From: Amphiscolops sp. MND2022
Taxonomy: Eukaryota
Length of the DNA stretch: 64,000 bases
Assembly (NCBI GenBank): GCA_964187785.1
Contig: OZ076421.1
Location: 8,122,001 to 8,186,000 of the forward strand
Reading direction: 5' to 3'
Part shown: piece by piece, positions 24,565 to 58,064 of the stretch
Layout of the letters: each line of letters begins with the position of its first letter
Numbering within the stretch: position 1 is the stretch's first letter
The notes under the pieces: model-generated
Databases searched by the model: none
What the model saw: the letters and a program-made list of their open reading frames with translations, nothing else
Told to the model about the DNA's origin: nothing
Program-made: the position numbers and the translations under genes

Positions 24565-24904
24565 CTAGCTATTTCTACTTTCACAATTCTCTGAGTTCTC
24601 TGTTAGGTCTTTATATCTTAGTCCTACGCAGGGAAGACATTTCAACAGATCAGATTCCACTTCCTCTTTCTTCTGATTATATAACTTCAGTAATTTCATC
24701 CAAGTATAATTCTAATCATTCTAAAGTGACAATAGTAAGATTAAATATTAATGATGTTATCACCAAATGTCAGCAATCTAATAATGAAGTATTAACTTCG
24801 AAATGAAGTGACATATGTCTTAATATCTAGTTAGAGGAAATGGGTGCCTTTCAAGGTTATGCAAATACTTGAAATTACTTGAGGTCATGCATCATGGCAT
24901 CATA
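24565..24904 (-). repeat. E4 5' LTR
   Basis: Homologous to 9960-10309; inner boundary approximate; PBS not recognisable. Confidence 0.75.
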
Positions 24905-25638
24905 ATAGGGGTCTAGCGATCATCGTCAGGGCGCTTTGGTCAAACGTTTTTTCAGCTCCTTGATTGCGTTCCTGCATGAAGTCTGGCAGCTTCATGATAT
25001 TTGGGTTAATTACCAATTTGTGCCAGTTATGTTTGGTTGTGACCTGTGACTCAGGTTTGACGTAATTTTCTGAAAGACAGCCAAGATATCCTTCAGTGTT
25101 CACCTGTTTGCCGATTTGGTATCACGGAAAACGTGTAACAAATTTTTGCGTAAGTGCGAAAGCAAATGGTTTATTTTCTCGTCTCAGTCATGTCTAGCTG
25201 CATTTTTATCGTCGTATGAAAGCGGTCTTAAAAGAGTTCCTTTTTTTACGGTAAAGCGTCAGTGTGGTGGTGTTGACTCGTCGTACCATCAATAATTGCG
25301 CCGATGATCTGTTGATACTCATACCAACTAATACATCAGCGTTTGAAGGGATCAGTAGGGGAGTTTTTCACTGAGAATTCCGGGCCTGGCAAGTTTGTGT
25401 CCAGAGAACCATTCTCAAGAGAATTTTGGGATTGCATGGGCCGACTTGGCAGGAACTTAGGAATATAAGAGGATGTTGTGACCCCTCTCACCAAGTCGTA
25501 ATCTCTCTCACTAGCATTAGAGTCTAGTGAAGTATCTCTATTGTTGTGATTAGGATTAAAATCTACTTTGTCTAATTTGGGGTGATTTGAAGTGATTTTA
25601 CTAGTAGTTTTCACTCCGATCTTTTTATTCCGGATGAC
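24905..25638 (-). pseudogene. E3 gag N-terminal part, degenerate PBS (about 25480-25492) and LTR fragment
   Basis: YVKPESQVTTKHNWHKL..MKLPDF aligns with E1 Gag; 25561-25638 matches 57275-57355. Confidence 0.75.
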
Positions 25639-27518
25639 TGTCGCGACCCCAGAGGTGTCACGGAATGCAAACAACAAGAGGAACGCCTGAGGAGGGAAGC
25701 GAGGAAATCGACCAGAGTAGGTCAGAAATGCCATAACAAACCTAAAAAGAAAAAACCAACAAACAGCCTAATATTATCTAAATAACATGTAAATGTGCAT
25801 TTACTACCATCGTGCTGTACCTGAAATACATAGATATGTAAATAATAATATAATAATAACAGGCGCAGTATTTGCTCAGTCAATTAACCAGCGCGTTGTT
25901 AATTCGATCAACGCGTTGACTGGGGACTTGCCTCAACGGCAGTAGTAATTTTAAATAATTCAGTCTGTATTGACCAATCAGAAATGAGCGTAGTTGAAGC
26001 TACTAGTGAATTCGGGTTAACGTCCCAGGCAGCAATACCAGTCGACTGAAGCTGGGACGCACGCTCAGTCGCACTGCCTGAATATACTGATGCAACCAAT
26101 CGACGCTAAGTTTTAAATGAAATTTCACGACTTAAAAGAAGTCAAGTACCAAGAGGGTGTCCAATGAACACTTGATGTATTCAATGTTTTTATTGTATTT
26201 AATTCACCTCGTGTTTGAGTCAACCTCCCAGGCAAAGTGCTAAATTTCCTAAGTAAAACGACAGCCAGGGTGGACGACCCAAACATTTGAGTAACATATA
26301 ACATTTGTTATCTCATTCGCGAAGCTGTCCTCTTTAGACGTTTTGATTGATAATATTATAGTGAAATAAACCCCCCAGTGCTAATATTCACCTCACATGC
26401 ATCGTTTAGTTCAATAACAAATGAGTCAACCACCTTGTCAACTGGCCAGACGACCCAAAATGAAACGCGTTGCCTGGCGTTCATCCAGGATTTTAATTGT
26501 TTGTTTCAGCCTAAAACACCGATTAACGGCTATAATTGTCTGATTAAAAGAAAATCAGTGCTGTTAATTTGTAATACCGAAGTATTTTCCTGGTTTGTTT
26601 ATTAGTAAAGTTTGGGAATATTCGAAGTAAATTTCACTTTCCTTTCCCGCTTCAGTAGCTAGATTCTTGAACTTTCAGTGCCAACTTTGGTTCGGCGTCT
26701 TGAATTGGCTGGAAATGAAGAAGGAAGTAACGCGGAATCGGGACTTCGGCAGGAAGTTGATTCCCACTTTTCATTTAAAGTGAGTTGACGCTGAAAGCCG
26801 AGTCCCGAGGACCTAATTTGGATTTTCCTGCCTCGGATTGACGCCGAGCTGAACGAGGTGTGAATTCACGCGCGGGATTTATCCCGCGTGTCTAGCGGAA
26901 AGTATATATACCCGAGGCGGGCTAAGGAGAGGACCAGTTTTATGTTGTGATTTTACGAACCGTTCGCCTGTAATTTTGAATTTTATTTTCATAACGTTCT
27001 TTTACTGACAATTATTGCTCTTTTATTTTGTTTGTCAAAAATCACTGCATGTGTACCATCCGATGTTTGGATACTATTTGTTTCATCAACTGTCCACGCT
27101 TGGAAATAACTTGAAACTATTAATCTTCAGAAAAGACCTAATTCAATTGTTCCAAGCCTGAACACTTTCTTGAAAATGCCTGAAAAGACTCAAAAATGAA
27201 AATTAAGAAGTGATCAAACTACCAGTCAGGAAGAGGTTGAGAGTTACAACCACCCGGATGACGAAAATGTCAGTCTTTCTGAGCAGGTTTTCGAGGATTT
27301 TTCTAGCAAAGTTGAACAACGTTTGTCAAAACGATTGAGAGATACCGAGTTTGGACAAACAGAGATCTTGAAGTTGATTGAGAACCTCACGTCTAAAGTA
27401 GATAGTCTTTCAAATCCTGCCTCTGAACAGTGTAGCTCCGCCTTGCGTTTTGAATTTGACACCGATCCGGTGAATGACTCAGGAAATGAAAATGCTTTTA
27501 GGAACGTCGGTGCCAACA
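25639..27518 (+). repeat. E2 5' LTR (1880 bp)
   Basis: 25677-27518 aligns with 39158-41012; ends CCAACA before the PBS. Confidence 0.92.
26871..26910 (+). promoter_or_regulatory. LTR promoter: 18-bp palindrome CGCGGGATT(T/A)ATCCCGCG followed by TATATATA
   Basis: Seen in all three LTR copies (26871, 40365, 47760); perfect in the latter two. Confidence 0.55.
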
Positions 27519-27529
27519 TGGTGACAGGA
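27519..27529 (+). other. E2 primer binding site TGGTGACAGGA
   Basis: Immediately after the LTR end, which is defined by comparison with the 3' LTR. Confidence 0.88.
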
Positions 27530-28582
27530 TTTTCAGCGAACCAGCAAGAAAACATCCACCAAAGATGATCAAACCTGCCGCCTCCAAACCAGAGGTATCC
27601 TGATGACTTCATCGATGAGCTTCTACAATCGTTGCAAACGGCAACCACCCACAACACAGGAATCCCCAGGCTACCCAAAGCCATGTCCACCACGATGACC
27701 ACATTCGATGGGAAAGCAGACAAATTCGAACTCTTCGAGGACCTCTTTCAAACGAGCCTGAAAGTGTACCCCAACATCGCAGAAGAGGAGAAGATCCACT
27801 ACTTCCACTCCCTCCTCCGGGGCGAAGCCCTACAAACATTCAGAAATATGACTGATGCCACCCGTGAACACCTCAATGACAACCTGGCAGGTTTCCGCCG
27901 CAGATATGTCCGACAACAATCTGTGCCAACGACACGCTGCAAATGGGAAAACCTATCTTTCAATCCGAGCCAACAAACCTTCCCCGACTTCCTAGAGCAG
28001 TACCAGAAGTTGGCCCAGGAAGCGTACGGAGAAGACGCCCCCAAGATTATAGAAACCTTATTCTACGCTAAGATGCCGCCCCACCTCAAGAGGGTCTTAA
28101 ACCAATCCCGACTCGAGACGGAATCCTACGAAACTATGGTACAACACCTCGAGAGGGAAATTGAACTTAACGGTTTGGCAGCGACCGACAGGCCACCAAT
28201 TACAGGGGTAAACAACCTCGCACTAAGCCTACCAAAAACAACAAGAGAAACCTCCCAAAACAACAGGAACATGCTTCGTGTGCGGCAGCCCAGGACATTT
28301 ATTACGAAACTGTCGCAAAACCAACAGTGACAAACGATCCCAGAAAAACCAAAACCCAACTGAAACTACACCATGTAAAACATGCGGAAAAAGGAGCCAT
28401 GAGACCAAAGATTGCTACTCAGCTGCAAACTGGGCAAACCGCCCAACGTTGTTGAAAACACCCAAAACAACACCTCCAAACAATATCCCGATCCCTCAAC
28501 AATCACAAGCTACCCCAATGCAACAGCCGCAATTTGCACAAATGTCTCAACCACCAACTGTTGCGCAATCAACAAACGAATC

Positions 28583-28589
28583 AAAAAAC
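28583..28589 (+). other. -1 frameshift heptamer A_AAA_AAC
   Basis: TCA AAA AAC TTC TAG; the -1 frame reads KKLLEPRL, like E1 KKLILPRL. Confidence 0.75.
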
Positions 28590-28595
28590 TTCTAG

Positions 28596-31500
28596 AGCCA
28601 CGTCTTCGCTTCGGGAACTACTTCGACTACATATATTACACGATATCTGAACCTCCGAAGAACCACGATTCCGAAATGTTTGGAGAGTGTTCCGGTTAAG
28701 CATCTACCGACTGGCAGCGGAGATGGCTCGTCCGGCGCCTCATAAAGTTTAACAAATCCACCCTAGACAAATTAAAATTCCCGGATTGGTACTTAGAATC
28801 CCCCAACTGTATAACTCAACTAGACGCCCTCTCCCTCTCAGTTCCACTCCCGACACCTACATTCATGACCCAGACTACGGTTGTGACCCTTACCACAACC
28901 CCGACTCATACGACCAAGCGACTTTAACATTCAAGGAAACGATTAATGTACCCTTCCACGAATTTGCCAAGAAGACGAACATGAATCTGGACATAACTAA
29001 GAAGAGAACCGAACACAATGGTGATCATCCACCCGTACCACACGCCGACGAACAAGACATGGAGCTACAAGTTATTGTGTCAGCGCCCGCTTACCCTCTT
29101 AAGCCAATCATCAAAACACTTGTCTCCAACATGACCGTAAACAGGTCACCCACAAGAGCTCCGGCACTCACCAACGAAATCAGGGCCTCGATGACATCAT
29201 CACCATCATCTCCTCAAAGTCCAGAACTTCCAACAAAACAACGCTCACATCAAACGGAAACAACAACCACCGCAGTACTAGACACGTACAAAGCCGGGGA
29301 CCCCCCCCCGTAAACCCTATAACCCAAACCAGCGTCGCCTCAACACAAAAAAAAACAAGACGGATCAAACGAGCACTGACTCGTGAGTTTGACAACAACG
29401 CACAGCCCAATACCAAGGAGAATCACGAACACGAAAATCACAAACAGAATGAAGGGTATATGTTGCTACAGCTGGACCCAAACCTACTAACCAGCATCCC
29501 GACTAGCGACAGCCCAGCTGGCGAACAATGCCTACCCGTATTTTCTGCAATCGCCCTCAAGCAGAAGAGACGCATGCTCTTCGCACCGATGGACTTTCAA
29601 CATTTCTCCAGAGACGCGCTCATTGACTCCGGCGCCCTGGTCAACTGAATGCCCGAAAGTGAATTTCAAAACTGAAAAACATGAGCCCCGATAACATTCT
29701 TCAAGAAGCCGATCCTCCACCTTTCAAACTACAGGTCGCAAATGGCGACCTTGAAAGCCCAACCAAGACAATTCAAGTCCAGTTTGAAATTGGTGATTGG
29801 ACGTTCAAGGAAACCTTTATCGTGGCGAACAAGATCACAGACCCTATCCTAGGCCTCTCCTTCCTAAGAAACAATAGCGCCGTATTGGACGCTAGTCAAG
29901 GACTCCTACACTTCCCCCATCTAACTTACGCAATAAACGCCACTCCAGAGGAGCAAACACCAAAACCACACAAGTTGATCATCGCAAACGATCATTGTCA
30001 AAAGCCAAAGACGACGTTGGCTCCAGACCAGTGTATCACAGTTGAAGCCCTGGTCAACATCAAATCAATCGCAGACACTACAGGTGTCATTCACCCGATG
30101 CCAGCATATGCAGAAGACAAACCCATAGTTCTCGCCAGCTCCCTATCCACTGTCCACGACATGAGAGTACCCAATCGACTCACGAATATCTCACCCACTT
30201 CATTCACGATCAAGAAGAACACAGTGGTAGCTGAATTCCATATCACAACGCCCAAAGAGGCCAAGAACATCAAACCTTTATCCACGGCGGCATTAAAGGT
30301 CCTAACCGAAGACGACTCAGAACAAGCACTCGAGTACGTAAACGAACTGCTGAAAACGACGGAAAAACCAGAAACCACCCAACAGTTTTGGTTCCCCACC
30401 CTGAACAACCCGGGCGATCCCTCCACTCACACTCGAGTCCAAAGACGAATCCTCAGAGAAATTGAAGAATTGGAGGAAATCCAAAACCTGAACCCCACAA
30501 ACAGCCCACAAAAAAAACAGAAATTTCTTAAGAAATTCAAGTGGGGAAGACTCTCACCTTGGCGAACAAGATCGGAAAGACATAGAGGACATCCTCGTCG
30601 AATACCACGACATATTCTCCCGACATCGCCTAGACATTGGAGTCAACCACGACTTCAAGATAAAACAGACGCCAAAAAATGACCAGCCCGCATACACGCA
30701 GAGCCTACCCTGCCCAGTAAACCTCAAAGAAGATTTCACAGTGTAGTTAGCCCTGATGCACTATTACGGCATCATAACCACTCTCCCGTTCAACAAATAT
30801 GCTAGCCCCATATTTGCTCAACGAAAGCCAAATGGACGACTTCGACTTGGAAAGATCAACAATCTAATAGCTGACGATTACACGAAGAACAATCACCCAG
30901 TCAGCACCTTCTCCGAGGCGGCACAACACCTCGCCGGAAAGAAGTTATTTTGCAAGCTAGACTGCTCCCAAGCTTATCACGTCTTGCAAATGGCAGACAA
31001 AAAGTCGGTAGAACTACTAGCTTTCAGTTTCGCCAGTCGAACTTTTGCATTCCTGCGGCTCGCACAAGGGCTCAGCAGGTCCCTCTCCTCCTTCGCGAGC
31101 TTCATGAGAGAATATCTCGATCGAGTCATCAAAGCTGACAAATGTGCTCAGTACGTCGACGACATCGGGATTGCCACCCACAACACCGAGGAGCTGGAGA
31201 CCAACCTGCGTGAGGTTTTTCAGTGCGTCCGAGAAGCAGGACTGCGTTTGACAATGGCCAAATGCCAGTTTGGTGCCAAGGAAGTCCAATTCCTTGGACG
31301 AACTGTGTCGCCGGAAAGAATTGCCCCACAAGACCAGAAGATTCAGAATTACCTGCAAAAACTGACCTTCCCGAAAACCAAAAAGGGCCTACAGCGCTAC
31401 ATTGGCTTCATTAATTACTATCGGAATTACATCCCCAGGCTTTCCGAAAAGATAGCCCCGTTTCACGACTTTATCAAAGCCGAAAAACCCATTAAGATCA

Positions 31501-33993
31501 CAAACGAGATCATGAACAGTTTCACCAGCATCAACAAATCCTTGGACAATGCGTGTGGCCTGTGGCTCAAACAACCCATGCCCAACAGACAATACGTACT
31601 CATGACCGACGCCAACGTCAAAAACGCAGGTTACGCCCTAATGATCGAAGAAAACCCAGATGAGAAAATCAACTCAGTCCGGAAAAAATACGCACCTGTG
31701 GCATTCGGTTCAAAGACTTTCTCTCCGTCTCAGATCAAACTGTCCATATATGCGAAAGAATTCCTGGCCATCTACTTCGCCTTCATGGAGTATGGCCACA
31801 TTCGTTGGGAATCAACCAAACCGGTTGTCGTCCTCACGGACAACACATCAGTGACACGCTTTTTCCAGACAAAAATCATTCCACCAGCCTTGTGGAACGT
31901 GTGCAATTTTGTCCTTCAATTCCATTTCACTATTGCTCACGTGCCGGGCAAAATGAACACAGCTGCAGACTTTCTGTCCCGCCTCGACCTTCAGCCAAAA
32001 GACAAGGTCCACCTCACCATAAGGGACGACATACGTACTACACCTATCCAGGTAAACATCCAGTGGTCTGATGTTGCAGAAGAAGAGCAATTCTTCTTCA
32101 TGCCCGATGACGATACGGAAACAGAAGAGCAAATCTGGCGGCGTAAGCTCCGCGCTGGCAAGAAATTCACTTCCAACGTTGACCCTTCCCATTACAAGCG
32201 AAACGACCACCGAAACAACGGACAGTGACCAAAAAGTCACCATATTTCAAACGGAAGTACTAGTAACTCAAACAACCCCTGAAACCACCAGTGAAGATGA
32301 TAGTCCATTGAAAACCATGAAACATCAACAAGACAAAGTCAACGTCTTGAGAAATTATAAACTTCGCTTGCTTAAAGAACCTTACAACGAGCAACTCTTA
32401 GCAAGCGACCCCCTCGCAGCTCGATACATTGCCCAGGACAGCAGAATAATCTTAAGAGATGGACTGTTATACCGGCAGTACTATGATCACACAGGAAAAG
32501 TCAAATTCCTATAGATTCTGCTACCTGAGCACCTAATGGAATCATTCATTCTAGCGCACCATGGACAGGCAGGCAAACACCCCGGGATAGCGAAGGTCAT
32601 ACCACAGTGTCGGGAGAAATACTGCTACCCGGGCATGGCAGCCAGGATAGCTCACCACATCTCCCGATGCACCGAATGTATGCAGAACAAACGAACGGAC
32701 AAACGGTCCATCACGCCACAGATGATCGACACATCCAAAATGGCCCTAGGCCCTGAGGATGCCCTCCAAATGGAAATTGTCCCCTTCGACGAGCCCTACG
32801 GCGGCTATACTGCAATCATCACGGCAATGGACGTTTTCTCATGCTATCTATTTACTTACAATGTAGTCAGAACAGATGCCCCCACAGTAGCCCGAGTTCT
32901 GGTGGACATCATGACCCGCGACGCCTACCTCCCAACCACCGTCATTACAGACGAGGGCACGCAGTTCATGTCTGATGTCATGACTGATGCAACTAGAACC
33001 CTGGGCATACAACTCAGACATGCCACGACTAAACACGCCCAAAGCATTGGAATACTAGAGAGATGCCACGCCTCTCTAAAGGAGTCACTAAAGATCTCAA
33101 CCGGAGAAAGAAGAACAATGTGGCACCAATTTGTAGCTATTGCAACGCTTAACTACAACACGTCGTACCACTCCGCCCTTGGTTGTGAACCGAGCAGGGT
33201 ATTCCATGGGAGGATACCGTACAACGTATTGGACCTGAAGTTTGGCATTCGCAACGCGCTACAAACAACACCGACGACAGCCCCTGGAGAAGACTTACTC
33301 CATTAAACGCAGCAGATAAAGGAAACTGTGAGCAAAAACTTAATGCAATCTTGTATACGATACAAACAGCATTACGACAAAAAAGCAAACGCTCACCCTC
33401 TACACGTCAACGAATACTGCTACGCACTACAGCGGAAAGCGAACACCCTGGGCACAAAAATCCCGTTTAGAGAATACCTCTGGACAGGACCATACATTGT
33501 CGTCAAAGTCCTGCCGAACAACAACTACCTCATACGCAAACTCCAGACAAAGTTCACACAAATCCTTCACAGCATCCGTTTGAAACCTTGCCCAACCGAC
33601 AAACCGCTCCCAGACAAACCAGTCTTACCCAAGGATTATATACCGGACAAGGAAGGAGACGTCTTCCACGACGACCTATTTGCCCAAGCTTGGCAGTCGA
33701 ACACCGAAGATCTTACCCCAATACCCAATACACCTTCCCAGACGGAACCTACCGTAACGATTCCCGAGCCATCCGAGGCTCAATTGACTAGAAGAGATAC
33801 CCGATCACCCGACCCAGAAGCTTTCCACCCAGCACCTAACCCAGATGAACGCCCAAATGACACAGCACCTAGCGTCAGTTCAGATAACCACGACAATGAT
33901 GACACAACCCCAAATTCCCTGAGCAAAAACCATTATAACCTACGAGCAAACCCCCCGTCAAACTGGGAACAAGATTATGCTTATTTATTATAA
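28596..33993 (+). pseudogene. pol: E2 pol (PR-RT-RH-IN), with stops and frameshifts
   Basis: LIDSGALV, CKLDCSQAYH, YVDDIGI, LMTDAN, HHGQAGKHPG...CTEC, TDEGTQF. Confidence 0.93.
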
Positions 33994-34565
33994 TACAATG
34001 AATGTCAACCTATTTTTCATAACAACTGAATGCTCAATTACATGCAAGGATAATCGTTTTACTTAATGACTTACGACTGACTAACTTTCTGTCTACACAC
34101 TCATCTATAGACTCAAGGAAAAACAGAACCGAGGAGTGAACAATCAATTACAGACAATTCCAATCATCGTCTTTTATCACGAGGCATCACATTAAGCCCC
34201 TTCTACTCCTCCTGTTTTTTTTCTCTTTTTTTCAAACGCTTGATTAACCAAGCTTTTTGATTACAACCAAAATGGACACAACGGCCCAGAAGAACTACAA
34301 TCAAAGTAAAATACATCAAATCAAATTATATAAAAATCAAACCAACAGCAACAACCGTTGAATGTTCGACAGTTCAAAGTCCATCTGCAAATTACGACTT
34401 GCCAACACGCTTCTGTGATGACGAAACTTTCGATCTGGGGGTCACCCGCATAGGACTACCACTACTGCGAGCTTCCCTCTTGGCTTGTAAGATACGAGTC
34501 ACGTCACTTGAACGACTCGGGGAAAAAGACAAACAGGGCAACGCACTGGATACTTCAAGCACTGG

Positions 34566-37500
34566 CTAGGACGATCCGCGTCCTAACGAATGAACGGGAG
34601 TGTCTGAGACAATAGCAACAGCTAACACCGCCCGACTCTCGACAGTAGGCTGTGACTTATCTGGAGTAGGACAAGTGGACAAGATGCCCAGCCCAGACTT
34701 GCGCCGCCATTCATTAACCTGCTCCAGGTAATAGGCGTTGAACGTACTTCGCAAACCGCGATACAACTCGCTCCGCGCTCTAGCATACAAGGGCCGCCAC
34801 GAAGCAAAAGAAGCATCCTCGACAAAAGTCCTCCCGTTGGGAAGATTGATCTTCAACTCCTCCAGACAGTTCTTAGTCAACAGTTCTCCAGCACTGAACC
34901 CGCCACAAGACACAAAAGACTGCACTGACACAACCGATGTAGTTAGAATCTTCCCAGGAATCTTCACCCCACTCATGGACATATCCACATCAGGATATTC
35001 AACGGATCGCGGAACCAAAACCAGTTCGGCCAGTCGAATCACGTTCGACAAATTTGGACGGCAGTCCACAACCCCGAACTCCGCAGGAAGTATAGACCAT
35101 TATTAATTGACGAGATAACCTGTCGATTCCGACGACGAAGTTCTACCAACAGTGACTTAAACTCATTGCAGGATCCCTCGCCCTCTGATACGCTGAGCCG
35201 ACCACAATCTTGGAAGCAGTTGATCAAGTTCCGAAACAACTCCACTGTATATATCTCGTCGCCCTGGACCAGCATATCGGGAGAAAAACAACTCAGGCTT
35301 GATAACACTCGTGATTTCGCAAAGGCAGAACTGTTCAACACCTTCAAGAAATCCATAAGGAAACTATGGCACTCTTCAAGAAACGACCGCTTCACTGTAT
35401 ATCCACACCCACCCAACGCAGACATAATTATGGGCTCACTTCTGAGACACTCCGGAGCTGGGACATTTGATCAGGTGTTTAGAGAACGACCGACATACTG
35501 ACTCCAAGCCTCAATCTCTGGCAACTCGGACAACTTCTTCACTTTGCTGAGGAGGCTCCAGTAGAAAAAACAGAATTCAGCATAATTACGCCAGTTGTAG
35601 TCCGACACATCGGTAACAAACTGCTTCTCAAAATTCGCCTGGAAACAAGCCACCAGCACATGAAAGACTCAGCCTGGGCAACACCAGAGAATCAGTCACC
35701 ACAACTCGGCTCAAACAGACCCAACGATACTCTCTTCTAAGAACAGTTTTACGTCAGCTCAATGTTGGACCAATTCCTCCAGAAAGGCACACAATGATGC
35801 AAAGGGCACTTCGAGTTGACGAATGCAGCGACGAAGTTGTGGAAGACCCATCAACCAAGGCTGATGTATAGCTTTTGCCAGACGAAGCATCAAATACTGT
35901 AAGACCGCGAATGGATCCAAACTGCTTGCCCCGACTAGACCCGCATCATGCACATGACCTTTAAATACCTCAGGAGTATACTGTGTAACGAACAACGGCT
36001 CGGGAGACCACTCACTTTGACACCACACGGAGAAGGCATTAAACAGAGTGGCCGAACAACCCTGCAAAGTTACGGGAACATGTTTGGGAGGCAGCAAAGC
36101 AAGCACCCGGGAAAGACACTTGATTTCAGCATCACAAACTCAAGAACCCATTTGCTCCCACAGGACACAAATCTCACGCTTGCCATCAGCAACAGCATAT
36201 CAAACGAAACATCGCCAATTATCTTCGTCTTCCCGGAACAACACACTGAAATAAGACTCCTTGCAGACTGACTGAATGCGACGAAGCACTCGCGGGTACA
36301 AAGTTTGACACAATATCACCAATGTCTCAGTCTTACTGCACGTTGCTTGGGCGAAATTACACTCCACTGGAATAGTAGTCCTGAACTCATTCCACAATCG
36401 ACGCAAGAAACTATGTGAGCCTCCACTTCGTAGAAGCTCAAACAGACTGCCCACCAATGTCGAGGAAGGCACATTAGACTCTACTCCACAAGTGCATCTA
36501 TCTCATCCTCAGCAAACGCATTCTTTTTCGCAAGACCTACAGGAGGAGTCATCTCAATCTCTGCTCTCAACTCAGGAGGAATCGAAGACAAATTTACAGC
36601 ATCAAAGCGCGTCGTATACACCACGTCCTCATGGTCAAGCCGGTAACGCCGATCTTTCAGGAAGTGAGTTTTGCCACTGAAGTGACGGTGAATCTCCGGC
36701 TCTCCACGCGTCAAGAAAGAAATATCTTTGCGACAAATTGCACAATTGAAGCCATTTGGACTGCCATTGGACCGTCAGCTCACAAAAAGACTAGGAATAG
36801 CATGTTCGACTATCACTTTGCGTAAAATGTGTCTTTCAGTCTGCCGTTTTTTCCTCAGCTCATACTTCGCAAACAACTTTGACTTGGTGGTCTCCTCCAC
36901 ATTCAGCTGAGTCTGAGCGCGGTGCATGTGGATGCCCTTGGCCCGCAACAAACGCATGATTTTCTCCATTTCTAAACAAGAATATGTAGCATAGAGGAAG
37001 TAACAACTATGAATAGACACTAACCACTCAAACGTGACAAGTGTCTCAAACCCAACACCATAGTCTTAACGAAAAACACAATACATAGTCGACAGGAAAA
37101 CACAAAAACGAATAAACACCAAAACTTACGACGAGTCAAGGAGCGCGACTCAAGACAACTCTTTGACCTCTCCAACCGCACAGCAGCTTGTCCAAAAGCC
37201 AACACTTGCGAAGAAGACAAGCACACTGCGCCAGGGGGTACCTCTTTGAGCCCAGCTAAAAACAACCATACTACATAACCATATGATCGAAAACCAGTAC
37301 CAACCCCCTCCCAAACTCCAAACAACCAGCGAAATAAAAGCCACGAAAACAAACATTGCAACCAAACATTTTCCCATTCATTGTGCAGCACAGATCGCTC
37401 CAGACCCTCAGCCGGACGCGAGTGTTGAGTCCGTTCACGCTTGGCTGCCACAGATTTGGTAACGGCAACACCCGCACCTTCTCCAGGGACATCGCCAGAG

Positions 37501-38305
37501 GATGACAGAAAACCCACACCAGCAAATTGTCCAACCAAAACTTCGTCGGCACTGGTCAACCCCAGATCAGGACGGCCAACTAAACAAAAAGCAATCAGAC
37601 TAGGCTCAGCGAAACGACATAACCATAACAGACCAAGAATCCCTACTTTCAGTTGTCTCATGATGGGCAGGAGATGAATCACTGGCACAATCACTGGACG
37701 ACTCAGAAGCAGCTCTGCCCCGTTTATCCACACCAGCACTGATTGCTGAACCCAATCGCTTGCTCCGGCGAACCCCAGAGCTACTAGGCGCAGAATTTCC
37801 TGGATGGAAATCAGCATCATTAGAATCATCAGACAGCCCTAAACAAAACAATGAAGTGGATGAATTGACGCGTCTGTATACTAGCATAATAGTGTTAACT
37901 GGCCATAAACACATCGCTGAGCATCTAACCCTGTTGGTCATGCAGATAATCCAATCCGTGTCTGGCTTCACTGTCAGTGGATTGAATTGAACGGGCATCT
38001 TCTGCATCAACAACTTTGTTCGCATCCTCATCAAAACTGTCATCAGAATCAATCTCGCCAAAACCGCGAGGGACTCAACGCGACTGAGCTACAGACTCCG
38101 CGACCTGACCCACTTCATCATTTCCTTCAGCAGCAACAACTAACTGCCTTTCCACATCAAAACTCTCAGCCCCCGAAGTAGCAATCCCACCACTCACTTC
38201 CTTCGCATTAGACTCCACCTCACTCTCCAAGAATTCAATGTTACGCGAACGTAAAACATGTTGAACAGCTTCATCTGTCGAGTTCGACATATTTTCCGCT
38301 TGCAA
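34566..38305 (-). pseudogene. Antisense, intron-containing gene inside E2; hAT-transposase-derived, catalytic residues apparently lost
   Basis: Acidic N-terminus; C2H2/BED-like CAICRKDISFLTRGEPEIHRHFSGKTH; TCSKTET..LYP..YFSVLF..CFVxY; PWL; LSNVIRLAELVLVP (hATC-like); three GT-AG introns restore the frame. Confidence 0.65.
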
Positions 38306-38626
38306 AGCAAGTCTGAAAAGTACTATACCATAACATCAACGGGATTAAAACGAAGACGTGGCGTAAAACCGACGAAACTATTAATATGAAGTATTATTAT
38401 TATGACGTAATTGAAGTCATTCAGTCTGCCAGCTGAAAACTTCCTCAATCACGCGAGCGGCGTGAACAATATACGAGTAAAGGAATTACCAGTTAAACGT
38501 TTCAACTATTCCCAATGCAATTGACAACACAACTACTTTTATTCCACAGCTAACACTTAAATTGCTAGCAGCCTATCATTTCACAAAAATTACTACTATT
38601 CACGCAATTACAATCAAGAAGGAACA

Positions 38627-39251
38627 ATGCAGACACCAGAATTTGATTTATCCAGCGACTGATTTATTCTGGAGCGCGATCAGGATGAATACCTGAAATT
38701 GCCTCAAGCTCAATCTACTCCTACTATCAAACTATCTCCGCAGAGCGGCTCCCCCCCCCAGCCGAAATACATGATCTATATGAGATGATAAAGACTGAAG
38801 AAGAACTTTTGGTTTTACATCATGATACAGCGCCAGTGGCTATTCAATCTACGGCGAACGAAGACGGCCCGACTATTCGACGGTTTACCAGGGACAACCC
38901 TGTGATTCAAGACAGCATGGATATCAGTCCACCCCGAAATTATTACGAGATGGACAGCTGGTTATTCGCTCCGAGTGATGGAACAGTCAGCCCCATTTCG
39001 AGCTATTCTAGCTCAATTGGCTCTTTTTCAGGGAGCGACTGGACGGCTGACTCGTCTTGGTTTTCATACGACTCTTTGGTACAATCCGTTTTCCAACCAC
39101 CTATTTCATCGCCGTTCAGGTCAATTTCTCCACTTTCTCCCATACCAAGCGTCCCTTAGAGGAACGCCTGAGGAGGGAAGCAAGTAAATCGACCAGATAA
39201 GGTCAGAAATGCCATAACAAACCTAAGAAGGAAAACCAACAAACAGCCTAA
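38627..39251 (+). pseudogene. Sense Ser/Pro-rich accessory ORF with basic C-terminus extending into the 3' LTR
   Basis: MQTPEF..., ORF 38785-39159, then EERLRREA..KCHNKPKK in the LTR; two frameshifts. Confidence 0.5.
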
Positions 39252-41012
39252 TATTATCAAATTAACATGTAAATGTCCATTTTTTACCATCGTGCTGTAC
39301 CTGAAATACATAGATATGTAAATAACTATAAAGAAATAACAGGCGCAGTATTTGCTCAGTCAATTAACCAGCGCGCCGACCGAAATTAATTCGATCAACG
39401 CGTTGACTGGGGACTTGCCTCAACGGCAGTAGTAATTTTAAAAAATTCAGTCTGTATTGACCAATCTGAATTGAGCGCACTTGAAGCTACTAGTGAATTC
39501 GAGTTAACGTCTCAGGCAGCAATACCAGTCGACTGAAGCTGGGACGCACGCTCAGTCGCACTGCCTGAATATACTGATGCAACCAATCGACGCTAAGTTT
39601 TAAATGAAAATTCACGACTTAAAAGAAGTCAAATACCAAGAGGGTGTCCAATGAACACTTGATGTATTCAATGTTTTTGATGTATTTAATTCACCTCGTG
39701 TTTGAGTCAACCTCCCAGGCAAAGTGCTAAATTTCCTAAGTAAAACGACAGCCTGGGTGGGCGACCAAAATATTTGAGTAATATATAACATTTGGTTATC
39801 TCATTCGCGAAGCTGTCCTCTTTAGACGTATTGATTGATAATATTATAGTGAAATAAACCCCCCAGTGCTAATATTCACCTCACATGCATCGTTCAGTTC
39901 AAAAACAAATGAGTCAACCACCTTGTCAACTGGCCAGACGACCCAAAATGAAACGCGTTGCCTGGCGTTCATCCAGGATTTTAATTGTTTGTTTCAGCCT
40001 AAAACACCGATTAACGGCTATAAATGTCAGATTAAAAGAAAATCAGTGCTGTTAATTTGTAATACCGAAGTATTTTCCTGGTTTGTTTATTAGTAAAGTT
40101 TGGGAATATTCGAAGTAAATTTCACTTTCCTTTCCCACTTCAGTAGCTAGATTCTTGAACTTTCAGTGCCAACTTTGGTTCGGCGTCTTGGATTGGCGGG
40201 AAATGAAGAAGGAAGTAACGCGGAATCGGGACTTCGGCAGGAAGTTGATTCCCACATTTCATTTAAAGTGAGTTGACGCTGAAAGCCGAGTCCCGAGGAA
40301 GCGGACCTAATTTGGATTTTCCTGCCTCGGGTTGACGCCGAGCTGAACGAGGTGTGAATTCACGCGCGGGATTAATCCCGCGTGTCTAGCGGAAAGTATA
40401 TATACCTGAGGCGGGTTAAGGAGAGGACCAGTTTTATTTTGTGATTTTACGAACCGTTCGCCTGTAATTTTGATCATTGTTTTCATAACGTTATTTTAAT
40501 GACAATTCTTGCTCTTTTAAATTGTTTGTCAATAATCACTGCATTTGTACCGTCCGAAGTTTGGATTCTATTTGTTTAATCAACTGTCCCCACTTGGGAA
40601 TAACTTGAAACTATTAATCTTCAGAAAAGACCTAATTCAATTGTTCCAAGCCTCTCACACTTTCTTGAAAATGCCTGAAAAGACACAAAAAAGGAAATTA
40701 AGAAGTGATCAAACTACCAGTCAGGAAGAGGTTGGAATTACAACCACCCGGATGACGAAAATGTCACTCTTACTGAGCAGGATTTCGATGATATTTCTAG
40801 CAAAGTTGAAAAACGTTTGTCAAAACGATTGAGAGATACCGAGTTCGGACAAAGAGAGATCTTGAAGTTCATTGAGAACCTCACGTCTAAAGTAGATAGT
40901 CTTTCAAACCCTGCCTCTGAACAGTGTAGTTCCGCCTTGCGTTTTGACTTTGACACCGATCCGGTGAATGACTCAGGAAATGAAAATGCTATTAGGAACG
41001 TCGGTACCAACA
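39158..41012 (+). repeat. E2 3' LTR, lacking the first 38 bp and the PPT
   Basis: Alignment to the 5' LTR starts at AGAGGAACGCC. Confidence 0.9.
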
Positions 41013-41081
41013 ATGACCTTTGGTGCAACTAATCAGCTATCCAATTTCAATTCCTCCCATTCATTTCAACACTCATAAACT

Positions 41082-44000
41082 CCCTCTAAAATTGCTGGGT
41101 CGGTGTGTGAGAAACAAAGTTGTTAAAATAACAATGGATTTCAAAATAACTTGGTCGAAATACAATGCTAAGGCTTTGAGATTCATTCATGAACAAATAC
41201 GGATCGGCGTTTGAGCCTGCAACGGTTCAGTGAACACAAAATGGCAGCTATAATAAAGTAATTACATGAACTTTAGCACCGATTATGCAATGTTTATCGA
41301 TAGTGCGTACAATTAAATGTCGATCAAATTGATTATTTCAGAACAAAAAGTCAGCTGTCAATCAATATGACATGTCAGTCATTTTTACAAGTCAAATAAA
41401 TTCAGAGGGCAAAAGTTTTGTGTTTTTGTTTTATGGTTATCCAAAAATGCGAATCGGTTCGCCCGAACCGTCTTTTGGCGGGTTCGAAAACTCATCTATA
41501 ACGAGAAGGTCATTGTTCATACCGAAGGCATTGGTATTTAAACTAGGTGAAACACGATTTTCATATTTTGATGACAAACAATATTCAACATTCTCCGCCC
41601 CGGAAAGTGTCGGCTCAAACAAAGGTACAAATTTTATCAGGGGTATCGTATAGGTTCGAAATTTCGAAGTCAAAATTGCGGATCGTGCAATCCCGTCTGA
41701 ACTATAATTTAGCCAGTCGATTCACGCAGTAGGGTAATGGCCTCTGGGATTGGACGCTTCAACTATCCAGACAAGATCGCCTGGGTTCAGGGCTCTGCTG
41801 CGATTAAGTAGGAGAATGTACTCTTTAAACCACCGGAACTAAATTGCATTAGCGTAGAATTGTGCCCGCGCGTACTGTTTCCGATGGTTGAAGTCAATTG
41901 CGAAGGTAGTTCAGTCGACAGAAGAGGAAATAATTGGGCGTCAAGGCATCTGTGTCATTTGGATCAGAGCTCACTGAGGTTATTGGTCGTGCGTTCAAAG
42001 TCTGTTCGACCAAACAGAAGACGGTCAGGAGGATTTCATCGATGAAACGACGGTCGCCAAGGATGGCGTAGAAGACCCGTTTACAACTGAGGACTAAACG
42101 CTGCCACGATCCCCTTGGTGATGTGTACCAGGGGGTTAAATTTCCAAGTAATTTTTTGTGAACCAGAAGTTCGGGTGCTTGCTCATTCCATTTTCTAATG
42201 TTCCCGACGAAATTCGTACCGTTGTCTGACCAAAATACGGACGGTGTTCCGCGGCGCGCGGCAAATCTGAGTATTCCCATGACACACGAATTGGTGTCTA
42301 GAGAAGGGACGACTTCTAGGTGTACGGCTTGGGTCGTCAAGCACGTGAAATAGAAACCCCATCGCTTCTCGCTAGATCGGCGTACTGTCAAGAAAAGCGG
42401 GCCAAAATAATCCACACCTGTCATTGTAAAAGGTGGCTTTTGGAACAAAAGTCGCTCTTTCGGAAGGTCTGCCATCATAGGAGATAACGTCTCAGCTTTT
42501 TTACGACGACACACCAGACAGGAACTTTCAGTTTTACGCAGGGTGTTCCTCATTTTGTGAACGCATAGTGTTGTTGGACTTGAACCCGCATGACGTCCAC
42601 ACCTGGGGTGTAATGCAAATCATGCAGGAGTAACCAATAGAGTAACAAATGGACAAGCCTGTGTCGACCGTCTACAATGATTGGATGCTTGACATCGTAA
42701 GTGATTTCGCTCAGACGTTTGACACGACCAGTGGATCGCATTAGGCAGTTAGCACTAATGAACGGTGAATAGGCTATAAACACGGCTTTTCGGTTGGAGA
42801 TGTTTTCCAACAAGGAAATTTTTCACTTCAAGGTGGAACCGTTCACGTTGTGCCATTGACAATAACTTTGATTTAGCGAGAGAAAGTTCGGAATAGTCAA
42901 CAATCCTTCTGTTGGGAGTTCGGAAGTGACTATGTTTTGGGATGACGCGCAGAACATAAACCATAGTGCGCTGTAGTTTCTTGTAAGAACTGAAGTTCTC
43001 GCATTGGATTATTTTCGGCGAACTTTCGGCTATCTCGGTGGAAGGTAAAGCGATTTCCTCGCCACCGCTTTTCAGATCGTTGAGAACAGCGTTTTCAGGT
43101 TTGAAGAGCCAATCACATGACCGCAACAATGCAGACCCCAAAAGCCATCTGCTAGAATTGAGGGCTTCAGCGGAGAGGCCTCTAGTCCCAGCGTCGGCGG
43201 GGTTGACGGAGGAGCTAACATAATTCAACTGGTCTAAGGTTGTCAGTTCTAAAAGTTCACAAACTCTGTTCGCAATGAAAATGGGTTGCTTTTCAGTAGA
43301 TTGCAACCATTGCAAAACCGTGGTACCATCAGACCAAAGAAAAGTGTTATCGATCGGATGGGTGAGAGCTTGGTGAATTTTTGCACACAACCTAGGAGTG
43401 CAGCTTGCAGTTCCAATTTAGGGACTGTCAACGACTTCATGGGAGCTACATGGGCTTACCCGGTGACAAACGACAAAAAAGGATTTCCGTTGGTGGCTAC
43501 ACGCGGCCTTCCCAGTAAAAAAGCAAGGCGACAGCGCTGAAGAACTCCTGTGAGTTGTCCCCAAATACGTGCAATTCAATTTGATCAACAACAACGGGAA
43601 AATAGCTACGGGGATTGTCATTTCGCTTAGACGCGGTAACTCGTTTATCCACTCAGTAATCCACTCAGAGTAATGTTCTGGGCTGTGTCAGTTGAGAATT
43701 GGTCATCCCATTGTTGACCAGAAACGCGCCAAAGCTGCGACAAGCCCAATGGTGTCAAAAACAGCAGCAAGTAGGCTTAGCACAGCTCGCTGTGTTAGAG
43801 TGGAGGGGACGTCTTCATTTATTCCTCGACTGACGACGAGGCTGTCACTTGAATGATCCCACTTCAGCCCAAGCACGTGGGAGGAAGTGCCCAAATGTCT
43901 GAGATATTTTTGGTTTGTTCCGTGTCTGGAGATAACTCGCTCGCATTCAGTTCAGCAGTAAGTGCCGGATCATTACTTGCAAACTTGAGTTTGAAGCCTC

Positions 44001-46964
44001 CTTTGGCAAGCACCTCAACTAGATCTTTCGACCGCTTTAGGGCTAGTTCAGGAGTGGGGAGTGAATCCAAGTAGTCGCCCATGTAAAATTTGAGTGTCAC
44101 AGCACGAGCTGCGTCATTAAAAGACACTGCATTATCGGCGGTGGTTCTCTGTAGCGCATGGTTTGCGCACGTGGGGGAGGCTTTTGCCCCAGTTATGTGT
44201 CGCACATATTGGTAAACCACAATGTCGTCGTTGGGGTCATCCCGCCACAAAAATCGAATGAATGGCTGATCTTGTTCCAAAACACCGACTTGAAGGAACA
44301 TCATGATGCCTTTGATATCAGCGGAAACGGCAAATCTATGCTCGCGAAAACGGAGTAGGGTATGCATTAAGTTTTGTAGCAGGTCGGGTCTTGTGAGGAG
44401 AGAGTTGTTCAGCGATGATTTCTGAAACTTGGCTGCGCCATTGAGAACGCGTCTCACTTTTGCAGGTTTATTGGGATTCACCACAAGATGGTGAGGAAGG
44501 TATCATTCACGTCGTGATCTTTTCGTGCGATCGTACGGAGGTACTTCAATGATGTAGCCGTTCGCGACGTCGGAAGAAATTGTCTCACGGTATCTATCGT
44601 TCAATACGGGGTCTTTTTCAAGCGACTTTAGTTGAACGAAAGCGGCATAATAGTTGTCCTGTAGGGCGTCATCATTAGCCCAAAGCAATCCCACTTGGTA
44701 GCGAGTACCGTCGTGGTACGTTGTGTCCTTCAGGATTTCCAGCGCTCGTTTGTCGGCAGTCGAACGCGGATCCACATGTTTGTTTCATCGCACCGAAAGA
44801 CTCGATGTCATACCAAGCGCAAAGCTGAGCCGGAAGTGAGTCGGGATTGGTATTCGCTTTGAAGCATGTGGCTATCAGACCGGAACTGGTTGGTAGAGGA
44901 CCGCTCAAGACCCATCCTAGAGGTAGAACGACTGCGACGGGGGAGTTTTTCAAATCGGACTCGAAATACTCCATCGGTCGGATAGCTTGAAACGCATCCT
45001 TTCGCGAATAAAACTCCACATCAGAGTAGCTGTATTTTTTGCCTTTTAACAGTGCAAAGTGTGGGTAAATGGATTGGACAGACGCAATATCGATGGCATC
45101 TGAGCCAGCGTTGATGTTGTCTTTCAGGTAGGGAGACAGTTAATAGGTCTCTCGTGATCCGTCGAGACTCGACAAATTCAGCTCTACCATTTCAGTATTA
45201 ACAACTTCTTGGGAGTTGATACCCTTTACTGTCGAACAAATGGGTCGGCCTTCGAGTTTCAGATCCTGGGCGTGCTTCCGTGTCATCCACGAATGACTAC
45301 ACGCCGAATCGCAGAGTGCCTCCGCTGTTTGTGAACCATTGGAGCTGGATAGATTCACTTTGACTATCTCCAGTGGTCTCTTCACATCGGACTTGGACGC
45401 AAGGGTGACTGAAGTCAGAGAAAAAATGCAGTCATGAGGATTTTGGGTGGATGATTCACTGGAGTTGTTCAAGCTCTGGCTCTGTTCAACGGGTTTTGTT
45501 CGGCTCGGGAAAATGCGTTCGGCTGCTTGTAAAAGAGTATTATGACTACTTGCGCATCCTTCCTTCGTACACTTACGTGGATTCGGACATTGGCGGAAAC
45601 TATGCTCGTCGTTTAGGTATTAAAAGCACAGTTTGTGTTGAGCAATTATTTTTGCTCTCTGCGTCGGTTTTTTTCTTTGAAGACTGCTTACCGCCATACT
45701 GGATGACGTCCTATGTAAGCGATACAAGGCTTGAACGTTTTGATAGGGACACTGTTCTTGACGGACTTTGTGTCTCTCGATGACTCGACATCGGAAGAAA
45801 ATTCCATCCAGATTTTTGGCTTATTTAGACAAGCTCGAAACCTACCACCTTGGGTCCACCTTGAGCAGACGCGTCCCTGCTTGCTGTTTTCTGGGTGGCT
45901 TGCATCCTGTCGTGGGCCTCTGACGTTTCTTGGAGCCAAGTTTTGAAATTGAGAAGTGTTGATCAATACAAGTTCCGCTTAACTGTGTGTAAAGACCACC
46001 CCACTCTCATATTAGGCGGCAATTTACTATTTGCTTGGTTCAAAAGTGAAGCACTGCAGAGGTCGGATTCGTAAGACAGTGACTGAAACACATTGACAAG
46101 GCTACTGATTGTGTAAGCGTAGCCTATGATACTTTTAGAACTATGCATCTTTACAGCAGGGTACGTTTCGAGCTTGTCTAAATAAGCCCCCACAACAGCT
46201 TGTGGCTGACAGAATTTTTTCTCCAATGTTTTCAATGCTTCAGTGTACATAGCGCCGCAGTATGTGAAGTTTGCGATGGCTGTTTTCGATATTCCAGTTA
46301 CCAAGGTTTCGAGATATGTTAACTTCACATCTTGACTCAATCGAGTCGAATCTACAGCGGAACGAAATTGTCCATACCACTCATGCCAGTTCAGTGGGTT
46401 TCCGTCATACGTATCCAATTTCCACTCAGGGAGAGGATCTTTCCTGCTTATTGTGAGCAGTTCTGCTTGGTCTTTTATTGTCATCTTGGTATTCAACCCT
46501 AGCTGGCTGATTTGCAAACTTTGCGGCTGTACACATGGCTAGAAATTCACAAGGTTTGCCTTCGTTCCCGCTCCAGTGTTTGATGAGCCAGGTAATGTAG
46601 GATACACAGTACCGATCTGGGTTACAGGGACGTATGTTGTTGCTCTCGTAGGTGCTATTGTCAGTACGATACATATGCCGCAAAAGTGGAGTTTATCATC
46701 AAGTGTAAAGTGTATTTTCCGTAAAACGAGAGCGAACCGTATTCTAGTCAAACAGTGCATAGTGTAAAGTTCACTAGTGTACAGTGTACAGTGCATAGTG
46801 TACAGTCCAAGTCACACCGTGTAACGAGCAAAAAAAGTAACGCGTGTTTGAAACAGTGACGCGTTTTTTTTGGCTGTTAATCGAACTAGCAAGATCTTGC
46901 TAGTTCGTTGCGGCATATGTATCGTAATTGTTGAAGCCGCTGCGATTGTAACTGGTTTCTGTGT
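41082..46964 (-). mobile_element. BEL/Pao element, 5'-truncated duplicate copy (3' LTR 41082-41590, PPT 41591-41601)
   Basis: LPEWKLDTYDGNPLNW (Gag), LCDSACSHSW (PR), SADIKG/FYMGDYLDS (RT), VPKLELQAA (RH), TGVDYFGP/SDNGTNFVG (IN); PPT GGGGCGGAGAA before TGTTG. Confidence 0.92.
46667..46924. mobile_element. 258-bp MITE in BEL gag
   Basis: Perfect 17-bp TIR CGATACATATGCCGCAA; TA on both flanks. Confidence 0.85.
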
Positions 46965-46967
46965 GCA

Positions 46968-48406
46968 ACTGATGCAACCAATCGACGCTAAGTTTTAAAT
47001 GAAAATTCACGACTTAAAAGAAGTCAAATACCAAGAGGGTGTCCAATGAACACTTGATGTATTCAATGTTTTTGATGTATTTAATTCACCTCGTGTTTGA
47101 GTCAACCTCCCAGGCAAAGTGCTAAATTTCCTAAGTAAAACGACAGCCTGGGTGGGCGACCAAAATATTTGAGTAATATATAACATTTGGTTATCTCATT
47201 CGCGAAGCTGTCCTCTTTAGACGTTTTGATTGATAATATTATAGTGAAATAAACCCCCCAGTGCTAATATTCACCTCACATGCATCGTTTAGTTCAATAA
47301 CAAATGAGTCAACCACCTTGTCAACTGGCCAGACGACCCAAAATGAAACGCGTTGCCTGGCGTTCATCCAGGATTTTAATTGTTTGTTTCAGCCTAAAAC
47401 ACCGATTAACGGCTATAATTGTCTGATTAAAAGAAAATCAGTGCTGTTAATTTGTAATACCGAAGTATTTTCCTGGTTTGTTTATTAGTAAAGTTTGGGA
47501 ATATTCGAAGTAAATTTCACTTTCCTTTCCCACTTCAGTAGCTAGATTCTTGAACTTTCAGTGCCAACTTTGGTTCGGCGTCTTGAATTGGCGGGAAATG
47601 AAGAAGGAAGTAACGCGGAATCGGGACTTCGGCAGGAAGTTGATTCCCACATTTCATTTAAAGTGAGTTGACGCTGAAAGCCGAGTCCCGAGGAAGCGGA
47701 CCTAATTTGGATTTTCCTGCCTCGGATTGATGCCGAGCTGAACGAGGTGTGAATTCACGCGCGGGATTAATCCCGCGTGTCTAGCGGAAAGTATATATAC
47801 CTTTGGCGGGTTAAGGAGAGGACCAGTTTTATTTTGTGATTTTACGAACCGTTCGCCTGTAATTTTGATCATTGTTTTCATAACGTTATTTTTATGACAA
47901 TTCTTGCTCTTTTAAATTGTTTGTCAATAATCACTGCATTTGTACCGTCCGAAGTTTGGATACTATTTGTTTAATCAACTGTCCCCACTTGGGAATAACT
48001 TGAAACTATTAATCTTCAGAAAAGACCTAATTCAATTGTTCCAAGCCTGAACACTTTCTTGAAAATGCCTGAAAAGACTCAAAAAAGGAAATTAAGAAGT
48101 GATCAAACTACCAGTCAGGAAGAGGTTGGAATTACAACCACCCGGATGACGAAAATGTCACTCTTACTGAGCAGGATTTCGATGATATTTCTAGCAAAGT
48201 TGAAAAACGTTTGTCAAAACGATTGAGAGATACCGAATTCGGACAAAGAGAGATCTTGAAGTTCATTGAGAACCTCACGTCTAAAGTAGATAGTCTTTCA
48301 AACCCTGCCTCTGAACAGTGTAGTTCCGCCTTGCGTTTTGACTTTGACACCGATCCGGTGAATGACTCAGGAAATGAAAATGCTATTAGGAACGTCGGTA
48401 CCAACA
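46968..48406 (+). repeat. Partial duplicate of the E2 3' LTR
   Basis: Matches 39573-41012 and is followed by the same ATGAC flank. Confidence 0.92.
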
Positions 48407-57925: not shown

Positions 57926-58064
57926 NNNNNNNNNNNNNNNNNNNNNNNNNNNNNNNNNNNNNNNNNNNNNNNNNNNNNNNNNNNNNNNNNNNNNNNNNNN
58001 NNNNNNNNNNNNNNNNNNNNNNNNNNNNNNNNNNNNNNNNNNNNNNNNNNNNNNNNNNNNNNNN
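57926..58064. other. Assembly gap (139 N)
   Basis: Run of N. Confidence 1.

Follow-up and report, generated by a model that had tools for sequence, protein, structure and literature searches.

A conserved, probably spliced antisense gene with a predicted hAT-transposase fold in a Ty3/gypsy retrotransposon family of Amphiscolops

The window analysed here, a stretch of 64,000 nucleotides (nt) from Amphiscolops sp. MND2022 (assembly GCA_964187785.1, contig OZ076421.1, positions 8,122,001 to 8,186,000 of the forward strand), carries on its plus strand a Ty3/gypsy retrotransposon (25639-41012) with an antisense gene between pol and the 3' long terminal repeat (LTR). We are highly confident that this gene, which runs on the minus strand opposite to gag-pol, has five exons and four introns, its transcription and splicing being predicted from sequence (Table 1). 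The copy in the window has decayed: its LTRs are no more than 94.5% identical, exon 1 has an in-frame stop at 38077-38075 and the last exon has fallen into nine stop-bounded pieces. In young copies the same exon is a natural open frame of about 830-870 amino acids (aa).

The initial annotation had proposed three GT-AG introns (introns 1, 2 and 4 of Table 1) that all end in TTGTTTAG and join their flanking reading frames in phase (QQ/GLSDD, TE/IGRPD, TR/QMEKI), together with a further acceptor at 37256 whose donor was uncertain. GT and AG are indeed present at all three, the junction peptides read as proposed, each junction being phase 1, and the three ends carry TTGTTTAG in the window copy. 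As for the further intron, its acceptor stands and its donor is uncertain no longer: alignment places it at 37366, where GT is found in 38 of the 39 other copies scored (deleted in one). The shared 8-mer is confined to these intron ends, with three occurrences in the window, all of them on the minus strand, and under a first-order Markov null for 34000-38500 (mean 0.25) three or more occurrences arose in 3 of 1000 runs. It is not conserved, intron ends in other copies reading TTTTAG, TTATAG, TTTCAG or TTGCAG, so we take it to be an ordinary T-rich 3' splice site. About 20 nt upstream of the ATG stands a conserved acceptor-like TTTTCAG, which hints at an intron in the 5' untranslated region, for which no donor was found.

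Conservation of GT/AG among family copies, and an excess of indels in the introns, had been named as checks on this gene model, and both bear it out. In the 1.07 Gb assembly a DNA search returned at least 123 matches and five protein searches at least 52, 54, 79, 95 and 97 scored matches, respectively. Sixty loci of 10 kb (40 plus 20 distant ones) were fetched, picked by presence of the antisense gene so as to span subfamilies. Splice sites were counted in 40 copies, the window copy and 39 others, which span about 48-100% protein identity; L066, rearranged by an internal tandem duplication of the antisense gene, was dropped. All four donors and acceptors 1, 3 and 4 keep their dinucleotides in nearly every copy (Table 1). 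Acceptor 2 aligns poorly (21 AG, 5 other and 14 gaps by alignment column), and a local search locates a T-rich AG that is in phase and free of stops in 38 of 39 copies, at a non-homologous site in one frameshifted copy. Other GT and AG dinucleotides in the same introns reach a median conservation of only 0.29 (n = 69) and 0.21 (n = 72). The reading frame is respected by 130 of 141 exon lengths, and 43 of 144 intron lengths are divisible by three; counted as distinct lengths, the figures are 26 of 36 and 21 of 69 (Fisher p 7e-5, indicative only, as are all p-values here, since related copies are not independent). Fixed codon phase, GT..AG ends with a T-rich 3' tract and lengths free of codon constraint fit spliceosomal introns of the U2 type.

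Table 1. Features of the antisense gene and its Ty3/gypsy element in the window (counts refer to the copies scored for splice sites unless stated otherwise; pN and pS, uncorrected nonsynonymous and synonymous differences)
Feature	Position	Strand	Remarks
Exon 1, from ATG 38290, 361 nt	37930..38290	-	acidic, low-complexity; one in-frame stop in window copy
Intron 1, 91 nt, phase 1	37839..37929	-	GT 40/40, AG 39/40 copies
Exon 2, 192 nt	37647..37838	-	
Intron 2, 67 nt, phase 1	37580..37646	-	GT 39/40; in-phase AG 38/39
Exon 3, 213 nt	37367..37579	-	
Intron 3, 111 nt, phase 1	37256..37366	-	GT 38/40, AG 39/40; donor non-canonical only in window copy
Exon 4, 126 nt	37130..37255	-	126 or 129 nt in all scored copies but one
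Intron 4, 158 nt, phase 1	36972..37129	-	GT 38/40, AG 39/40
Exon 5, C2H2-type zinc finger and predicted hAT-transposase fold	34392..36971 (3' end approximate)	-	nine pieces in window copy
Acceptor-like TTTTCAG, conserved	38313..38319	-	about 20 nt upstream of ATG
Hairpin-like inverted repeat in intron 1, self-complementary apex TGGCCA	37905-37900	-	
Palindrome GACGCGTC in intron 1	37874-37867	-	
Conserved non-coding block between divergent antisense gene and ORF4	38350..38490		motif found in 39/40 copies
Motif CAGCTGGCAGACTG in conserved block	38435-38422		
Motif TTACGTCA in conserved block	38410-38403		
Motif TTTTACGCCAC in conserved block	38368-38358		
5' LTR, TG...CA	25639..27518	+	94.5% identical to 3' LTR over 1857 nt
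Target-site duplication ATGAC, 5 bp	25634-25638 and 41013-41017		flanks window element
Primer-binding-site-like TGGTGACAGGA	27519..27529	+	abuts 5' LTR end
gag, capsid-like, zf-CCHC, broken	27569..28595	+	Pfam
pol, order protease, reverse transcriptase, RNase H, integrase; broken in window copy	28753..33993	+	Pfam
Sense ORF4, about 210 aa in intact copies	38627..39159	+	pN<pS in 10/10 pairs
3' LTR, TG...CA	39158..41012	+	first ~38 nt missing in window copy

Judged by its substitutions, the last exon is under purifying selection: pN (0.11-0.42) lies below pS (0.71-0.81) in 45 of 45 pairs, and the ratio of corrected rates (dN/dS) is 0.11 in the sole unsaturated pair. We used pN and pS because Jukes-Cantor-corrected dN/dS is saturated in 77 of 78 between-subfamily pairs. 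Among 52 matches to P0001, a natural open frame of this exon, 40 are free of stops. A plus-strand env over the last exon, which might have been read into the same stretch, is ruled out by 8-43 stops in each plus frame. Protein homologue searches gave no record resembling the spliced full-length product.

The gene belongs to its element. It lies opposite to an adjoining pol in 38 of 40 loci and in all 20 distant ones, and the other two (L047, L056) are derivatives without pol that are bounded by LTRs and retain the antisense gene, some of gag and ORF4, a sense open reading frame (ORF). Free-standing antisense genes were found in none of the 60 loci, all of which lie inside gypsy elements. Nine complete relatives, fetched whole, measure 15.7-16.6 kb, have LTRs that are 99.3-100% identical and 5-bp duplications (nine of nine, by eye), and carry the 11-mer TGGTGACAGGA directly 3' of the 5' LTR in every case. 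All nine keep the intron-bearing gene, in line with the earlier proposal that introns antisense to the genomic RNA survive reverse transcription; near-identical LTRs together with the presence of the gene imply recent transposition with the introns in place. The introns persist because the spliceosome reads the sense genomic RNA, in which they appear as CT..AC, and introns on the other strand are thereby shielded. In another copy (L046) a genomic deletion runs from exon 2 into exon 4, which is not a precise intron loss.

Depending on lineage, the antisense gene likely has four to seven or more introns. Three further introns, in phases 0, 0 and 1, interrupt the long last exon in the distant lineage (23-37% protein identity); canonical dinucleotides stand at their three donors and at the first acceptor in all 20 copies, and the 5' part of the gene in this lineage also has GT..AG-bounded segments by eye. 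At the left edge of the window (1-7653, minus strand; L116:1932-10000) stands a second gypsy element with 98.9% identical LTRs and a long open pol. It contains, just outside the window, a still more distant relative of the antisense gene, with introns at the same three places plus one more and with a long unbroken 5' exon. Around the first shared intron site (window 36320) the residues align collinearly with no indel, and at the other two they agree within about one residue. The left-edge protein is 21-33% identical to those of both other lineages, values that weakly place the left element outside and so make it likely that the three adjacent 3' introns were lost jointly in the window lineage. 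Loss of 3' introns is the pattern expected from recombination with complementary DNA (cDNA) of a spliced mRNA and, if it took place here, would be indirect evidence of germline expression. Our integrase tree (a quick tree with a midpoint root between groups and 8 of 62 rows omitted for short matches) separates the groups by a well-supported branch, each group on its own side, but it leaves the root free and so does not set the direction of change, loss or gain.

Predicted structure suggests that the antisense protein quite probably descends from a hAT transposase. An AlphaFold2 model of P0001 (38-row alignment, mean predicted local distance difference test score 74.6, predicted template modelling score, pTM, 0.66) has an RNase H core with a large helical insertion, as in the Hermes fold. 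Foldseek against the PDB puts Hermes chains in each of the first ten rows (E 2e-5 to 8e-4), and comparison of the model with Hermes (VIA) gives Z 12.8-13.6 at a root-mean-square deviation (rmsd) of 5.0-5.7 with about 400 residues aligned. Moreover, in a scan of 48,161 chains Hermes is the sole structure at Z of 8 or above (Z 12.8, rmsd 5.3, 399 residues aligned), the next scoring 7.3. Consistent with this, the single match at E<=0.001 in a viral library is a hAT protein, and ESM Atlas neighbours of the antisense protein belong to hAT, DUF4371 and FAM200 families (0.89-0.93). Its zinc ligands C84, C87, H104 and H110 are conserved in 26-28 of 28-29 rows, with no match of the finger to Pfam zf-BED, and the product has basic stretches resembling nuclear localisation signals. 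PDB sequence searches returned nothing meaningful for it. The two aspartates that hATs carry, as we take it, at the ends of RNase H strands 1 and 4 have apparently been lost, no Asp or Glu being conserved after either strand in the family alignment.

Several points weigh against a hAT-derived gene with a dead core. The Hermes match amounts to 9-12% identity and a template modelling score of about 0.3-0.35 of the query, on a single model of pTM 0.66, and when the Atlas was queried a second time, with the RNase H exon from a distant copy, it returned unnamed clusters and no hAT family. Pfam finds no family at E<=0.1, and no Dimer_Tnp_hAT, in the antisense pieces and homologues. The family profile (A1) has no similarity to any of 16 hAT ORFs from 13 loci of the same genome and hhalign gives A1 against A3 a probability of 0.2%, so that no donor hAT family was found. 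Secondary structure and a motif, rather than superposition, served to place the catalytic positions, and the third of these may be an acidic residue at 680, kept in 30 of 31 rows and followed by Ser at +4. On the side of the gene model, an AATAAA downstream of the antisense gene is not conserved (6 of 18 copies plus the window).

Comparison of whole copies points to mobility of another kind. Three far-subfamily pairs are 95-98% identical in pol and about 97% in the downstream part and just 70-77% in the antisense gene; two further pairs combine 98% in pol with 62-65% in the gene. Of 12 pairs, chosen partly for this pattern, 7 show a sliding identity that falls just 3' of pol and rises again shortly upstream of the ATG. 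By these profiles, the whole antisense gene, introns included, is swapped between backbones as a unit. The upstream border lies at a motif equivalent to window 38368-38353 in six finely mapped pairs; downstream borders vary by about 150 nt. The conserved block between the antisense gene and ORF4 (Table 1) is thereby a candidate for the upstream border of the exchanged cassette as well as for a bidirectional promoter. It contains TGACGT-type motifs, repeated fourfold in one distant copy. In copy L099 (7643-7853), the interval that separates the antisense ATG from the sense ORF holds four 28-nt units with a TGACGTCA-type core, with several ATTGG (CCAAT) boxes close by.

Intron 1 is better conserved than the exon that precedes it and holds two palindromic elements (Table 1). 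Its 8-mer is self-complementary in 56 of the 57 copies where it was located (61 loci examined) and comes in three forms, GACGCGTC, AACGCGTT and GGCGCGCC, related by double substitutions. The hairpin apex reads TGGCCA in 32 copies and the window, AGGCCT in nine, TGATCA in seven, TGGCCG in six and AAGCCT in one, and is deleted in one. Single folds give similar hairpins in most copies, with z below -2 in 1 of 20 and z-scores that favour neither strand, and RNAalifold gives no consensus structure on an input alignment mis-gapped at the apex. Palindromes have been implicated in Ty1 and retroviral RNA dimerisation (PMC5454406). A role in RNA dimerisation or packaging is conceivable for those of intron 1, albeit far from assured; that they form a DNA binding site we consider rather doubtful.

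Turning to the remainder of the element and the window, ORF4 has no match in a Pfam search. It is S/P-rich and precedes the 3' LTR, and most distant copies have sense ORFs of similar size at the equivalent place. Upstream of gag its frame stays open for more than 100 codons into the LTR end (27200-27568, plus strand), and an ATG overlaps the border between LTR and primer site. Two related pol proteins, P0315 and P0323, carry a precomputed Pfam PF00692, presumably dUTPase. A 7.4-kb tandem duplication (39573-54329, 98.4% identical) covers the greater part of the 3' LTR together with a neighbouring element on the minus strand, which has DUF1759 and matches integrase weakly. Further along are a run of N (139 nt, 57926-58064) and a tandem array of about four copies of a 1421-bp unit (58107-63877, 99% identical). 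To the left, 10000-24500 combines low GC and a strong G skew with numerous ORF pieces (100-330 aa) on the minus strand. A repeat (9983-10311 and 24590-24906) delimits this stretch, which is possibly another large element.

On balance, we lean towards an explanation in which a conserved antisense gene, likely spliced and hAT-derived, provides an activator or anti-silencing factor for its own element. An intron-bearing hAT would have inserted in reverse orientation into an ancestral element, in the interval from pol to the 3' LTR, and would have lost its ends and its catalytic aspartates. Its introns would persist through retrotransposition, as their pattern in young elements indicates, and the gene would be driven from the block at 38350-38490, shared with the divergent ORF4, or from the 3' LTR. 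Exchange of the whole gene between backbones, apparent in the identity profiles, may proceed through template switching between co-packaged genomes, and the three 3' introns may have gone together through cDNA of a spliced mRNA recombining back. In the last and weakest step, an acidic N-terminus, a zinc finger and a dead hAT core would make up a nuclear DNA-binding regulator. That this regulator is a DNA-binding activator or anti-silencing factor of its own element is a tentative assignment, on which our own opinion is nearly evenly divided. We favour a regulator because of the acidic N-terminus, the zinc finger, the dead core, the independence from integrase type and the parallel with regulators derived from transposases: transposases act as activators that recognise specific sequences, and transcription factors arise from their dead derivatives (bioRxiv 10.64898/2026.08.24.746577). 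One may go further and envisage a gypsy lineage that depends on a dead hAT to de-silence its own copies, with swappable specificity cassettes and with intron 1 as the dimerisation or packaging signal of the genomic RNA that locks the cassette in; we think it unlikely that this holds as a whole.

The same gene, with the same origin, might instead serve integration, through chromatin tethering, nuclear entry of the pre-integration complex or protection of cDNA ends. hAT cores bind DNA ends, entries of Hermes with DNA are among our fold matches, and the basic stretches described above would suit such a protein. Nuclear import has moreover been proposed for plant antisense ORFs (PMC7264820). A tight partner of integrase would, however, not be expected to be exchanged independently of it, as happens where near-identical pol goes with antisense genes 62-77% alike, and the pol-less derivatives retain the gene; hence we regard a helper of integration as unlikely. 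Somewhat poorer still are the prospects of a counter-defence or exclusion factor, whose diverged cassettes would be kept by conflict with small-RNA silencing by the host or between subfamilies. The many deeply diverged gene types on near-identical backbones, with saturated synonymous sites, would fit a conflict of this sort, as would the many host contacts predicted for accessory proteins of transposable elements (TEs) (PMC13547354). Yet pairwise pN/pS reveals purifying selection alone, template switching by itself can yield exchange at flanking conserved blocks, and the idea overlaps with the activator or anti-silencing factor that we prefer.

Very improbable, to our minds, is an independent and still active intron-bearing hAT transposon that targets the retrotransposon, the introns being those of a nested DNA element. 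The predicted fold, the sharp cassette borders and the possible third acidic residue might speak for it. By its sequence, however, the antisense gene does not qualify as an active hAT transposon, with terminal inverted repeats, an 8-bp duplication and free-standing copies, since no inverted-repeat pair was found to frame it (none among the five longest listed in each of six regions) and no free-standing copy turned up in the 60 loci. Moreover, all three lineages have the gene at the same place and in the same orientation, its core apparently lacks the first two aspartates and the downstream borders vary. We give next to no credence to the view that conservation in the 5' part stems from signals in the RNA or DNA of the element, for packaging, dimerisation or antisense RNA, in place of a spliced coding gene: the greater conservation of intron 1 and its palindromes agree with such signals, which may hold there in addition to a coding gene, but codon-wise exon lengths, GT/AG at eight sites, the 830-870 aa frame and pN<pS are left unexplained.

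Antisense additional ORFs between pol and the 3' LTR (aORF-3R) are on record for maize Grande (GENE23), rice RIRE2, Silene Retand (ORF4), bean PvRetro13 (ORF2) and Botrytis Boty (PMC7264820; PMC4093653). The window family, whose loci were picked by the gene, shares with them position, orientation, presence in most copies and conservation. Grande gene23 has its own upstream promoter and Retand ORF4 a Transposase_28 domain (PMC7264820; PMC4093653); with no Pfam family at E<=0.1, the window protein matches neither this nor the SMC-like domain of aORF-3R proteins. The word 'intron' is absent from the main text of both papers, whereas the window family has four to seven or more, and a full-length predicted hAT fold and cassette exchange set it apart from aORF-3R as described there. 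In its accessible text, the 2020 review calls the origin of these ORFs unknown, reports no similarity that would support a nested-TE origin and recommends that spliced antisense transcripts be sought (PMC7264820).

With Hermes and other hATs, and with their domesticated DUF4371/FAM200/ZBED5/GTF2IRD2 type, the window protein has in common a predicted RNase H core with a helical insertion and an N-terminal zinc finger. It differs from hATs in having no sequence-level match, two aspartates apparently lost and no terminal inverted repeats found, and its carrier is another transposon rather than a host genome. HBZ of HTLV-1 is a small bZIP factor that is driven from the 3' LTR and overlaps sense genes. 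Both HBZ and, as predicted here, the window gene are spliced antisense protein-coding genes in an LTR retroelement (PMC1459196). Unlike HBZ, the window gene is a large multi-exon candidate transposase derivative in a cassette of its own. Introns of the his3AI type are removed on retrotransposition. Indicators of this type (PMC5454406) resemble our case in that a gene runs opposite to the element's transcript and the fate of the intron depends on strand, albeit as a mirror image: the his3AI intron lies on the element's transcript, whereas the window introns lie on the other strand and stay. VANC and TnpA, finally, are accessory sequence-specific activators of their own families, a role such as we tentatively propose for the window protein, and the DNA-binding domain of TnpA derives from a transposase; both, however, are encoded by plant DNA transposons and not by a gypsy retrotransposon (bioRxiv 10.64898/2026.08.24.746577). 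In the literature searched, which covered few subscription papers, we found no description of a gypsy-borne, hAT-derived, spliced antisense gene, nor is one given in the accessible text of PMC9289625, PMC6431247, PMC12477816, PMC5408684 and PMC13547354, and it may have been annotated before. New here are the hAT-like predicted fold with its apparently lost aspartates, the confinement of all 60 loci to gypsy elements, the extra introns of sister lineages, the cassette exchange and the palindromes of intron 1; the position of the antisense ORF was already known.

Where antisense accessory genes in LTR retrotransposons come from and what they do are questions stated to be open, and the window family offers a concrete case that combines a multi-intron gene, a predicted DNA-transposase fold, purifying selection and many young copies. 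It also amounts to a natural experiment on how introns evolve within a retroelement: they are kept on the protected strand, their loss was likely 3'-biased, and dated copies are numerous. The swapped cassettes, in turn, make specificity directly testable. If the hAT origin is true, one kind of jumping gene is likely to have tamed another as its helper, a class I element having taken on the transposase of class II.

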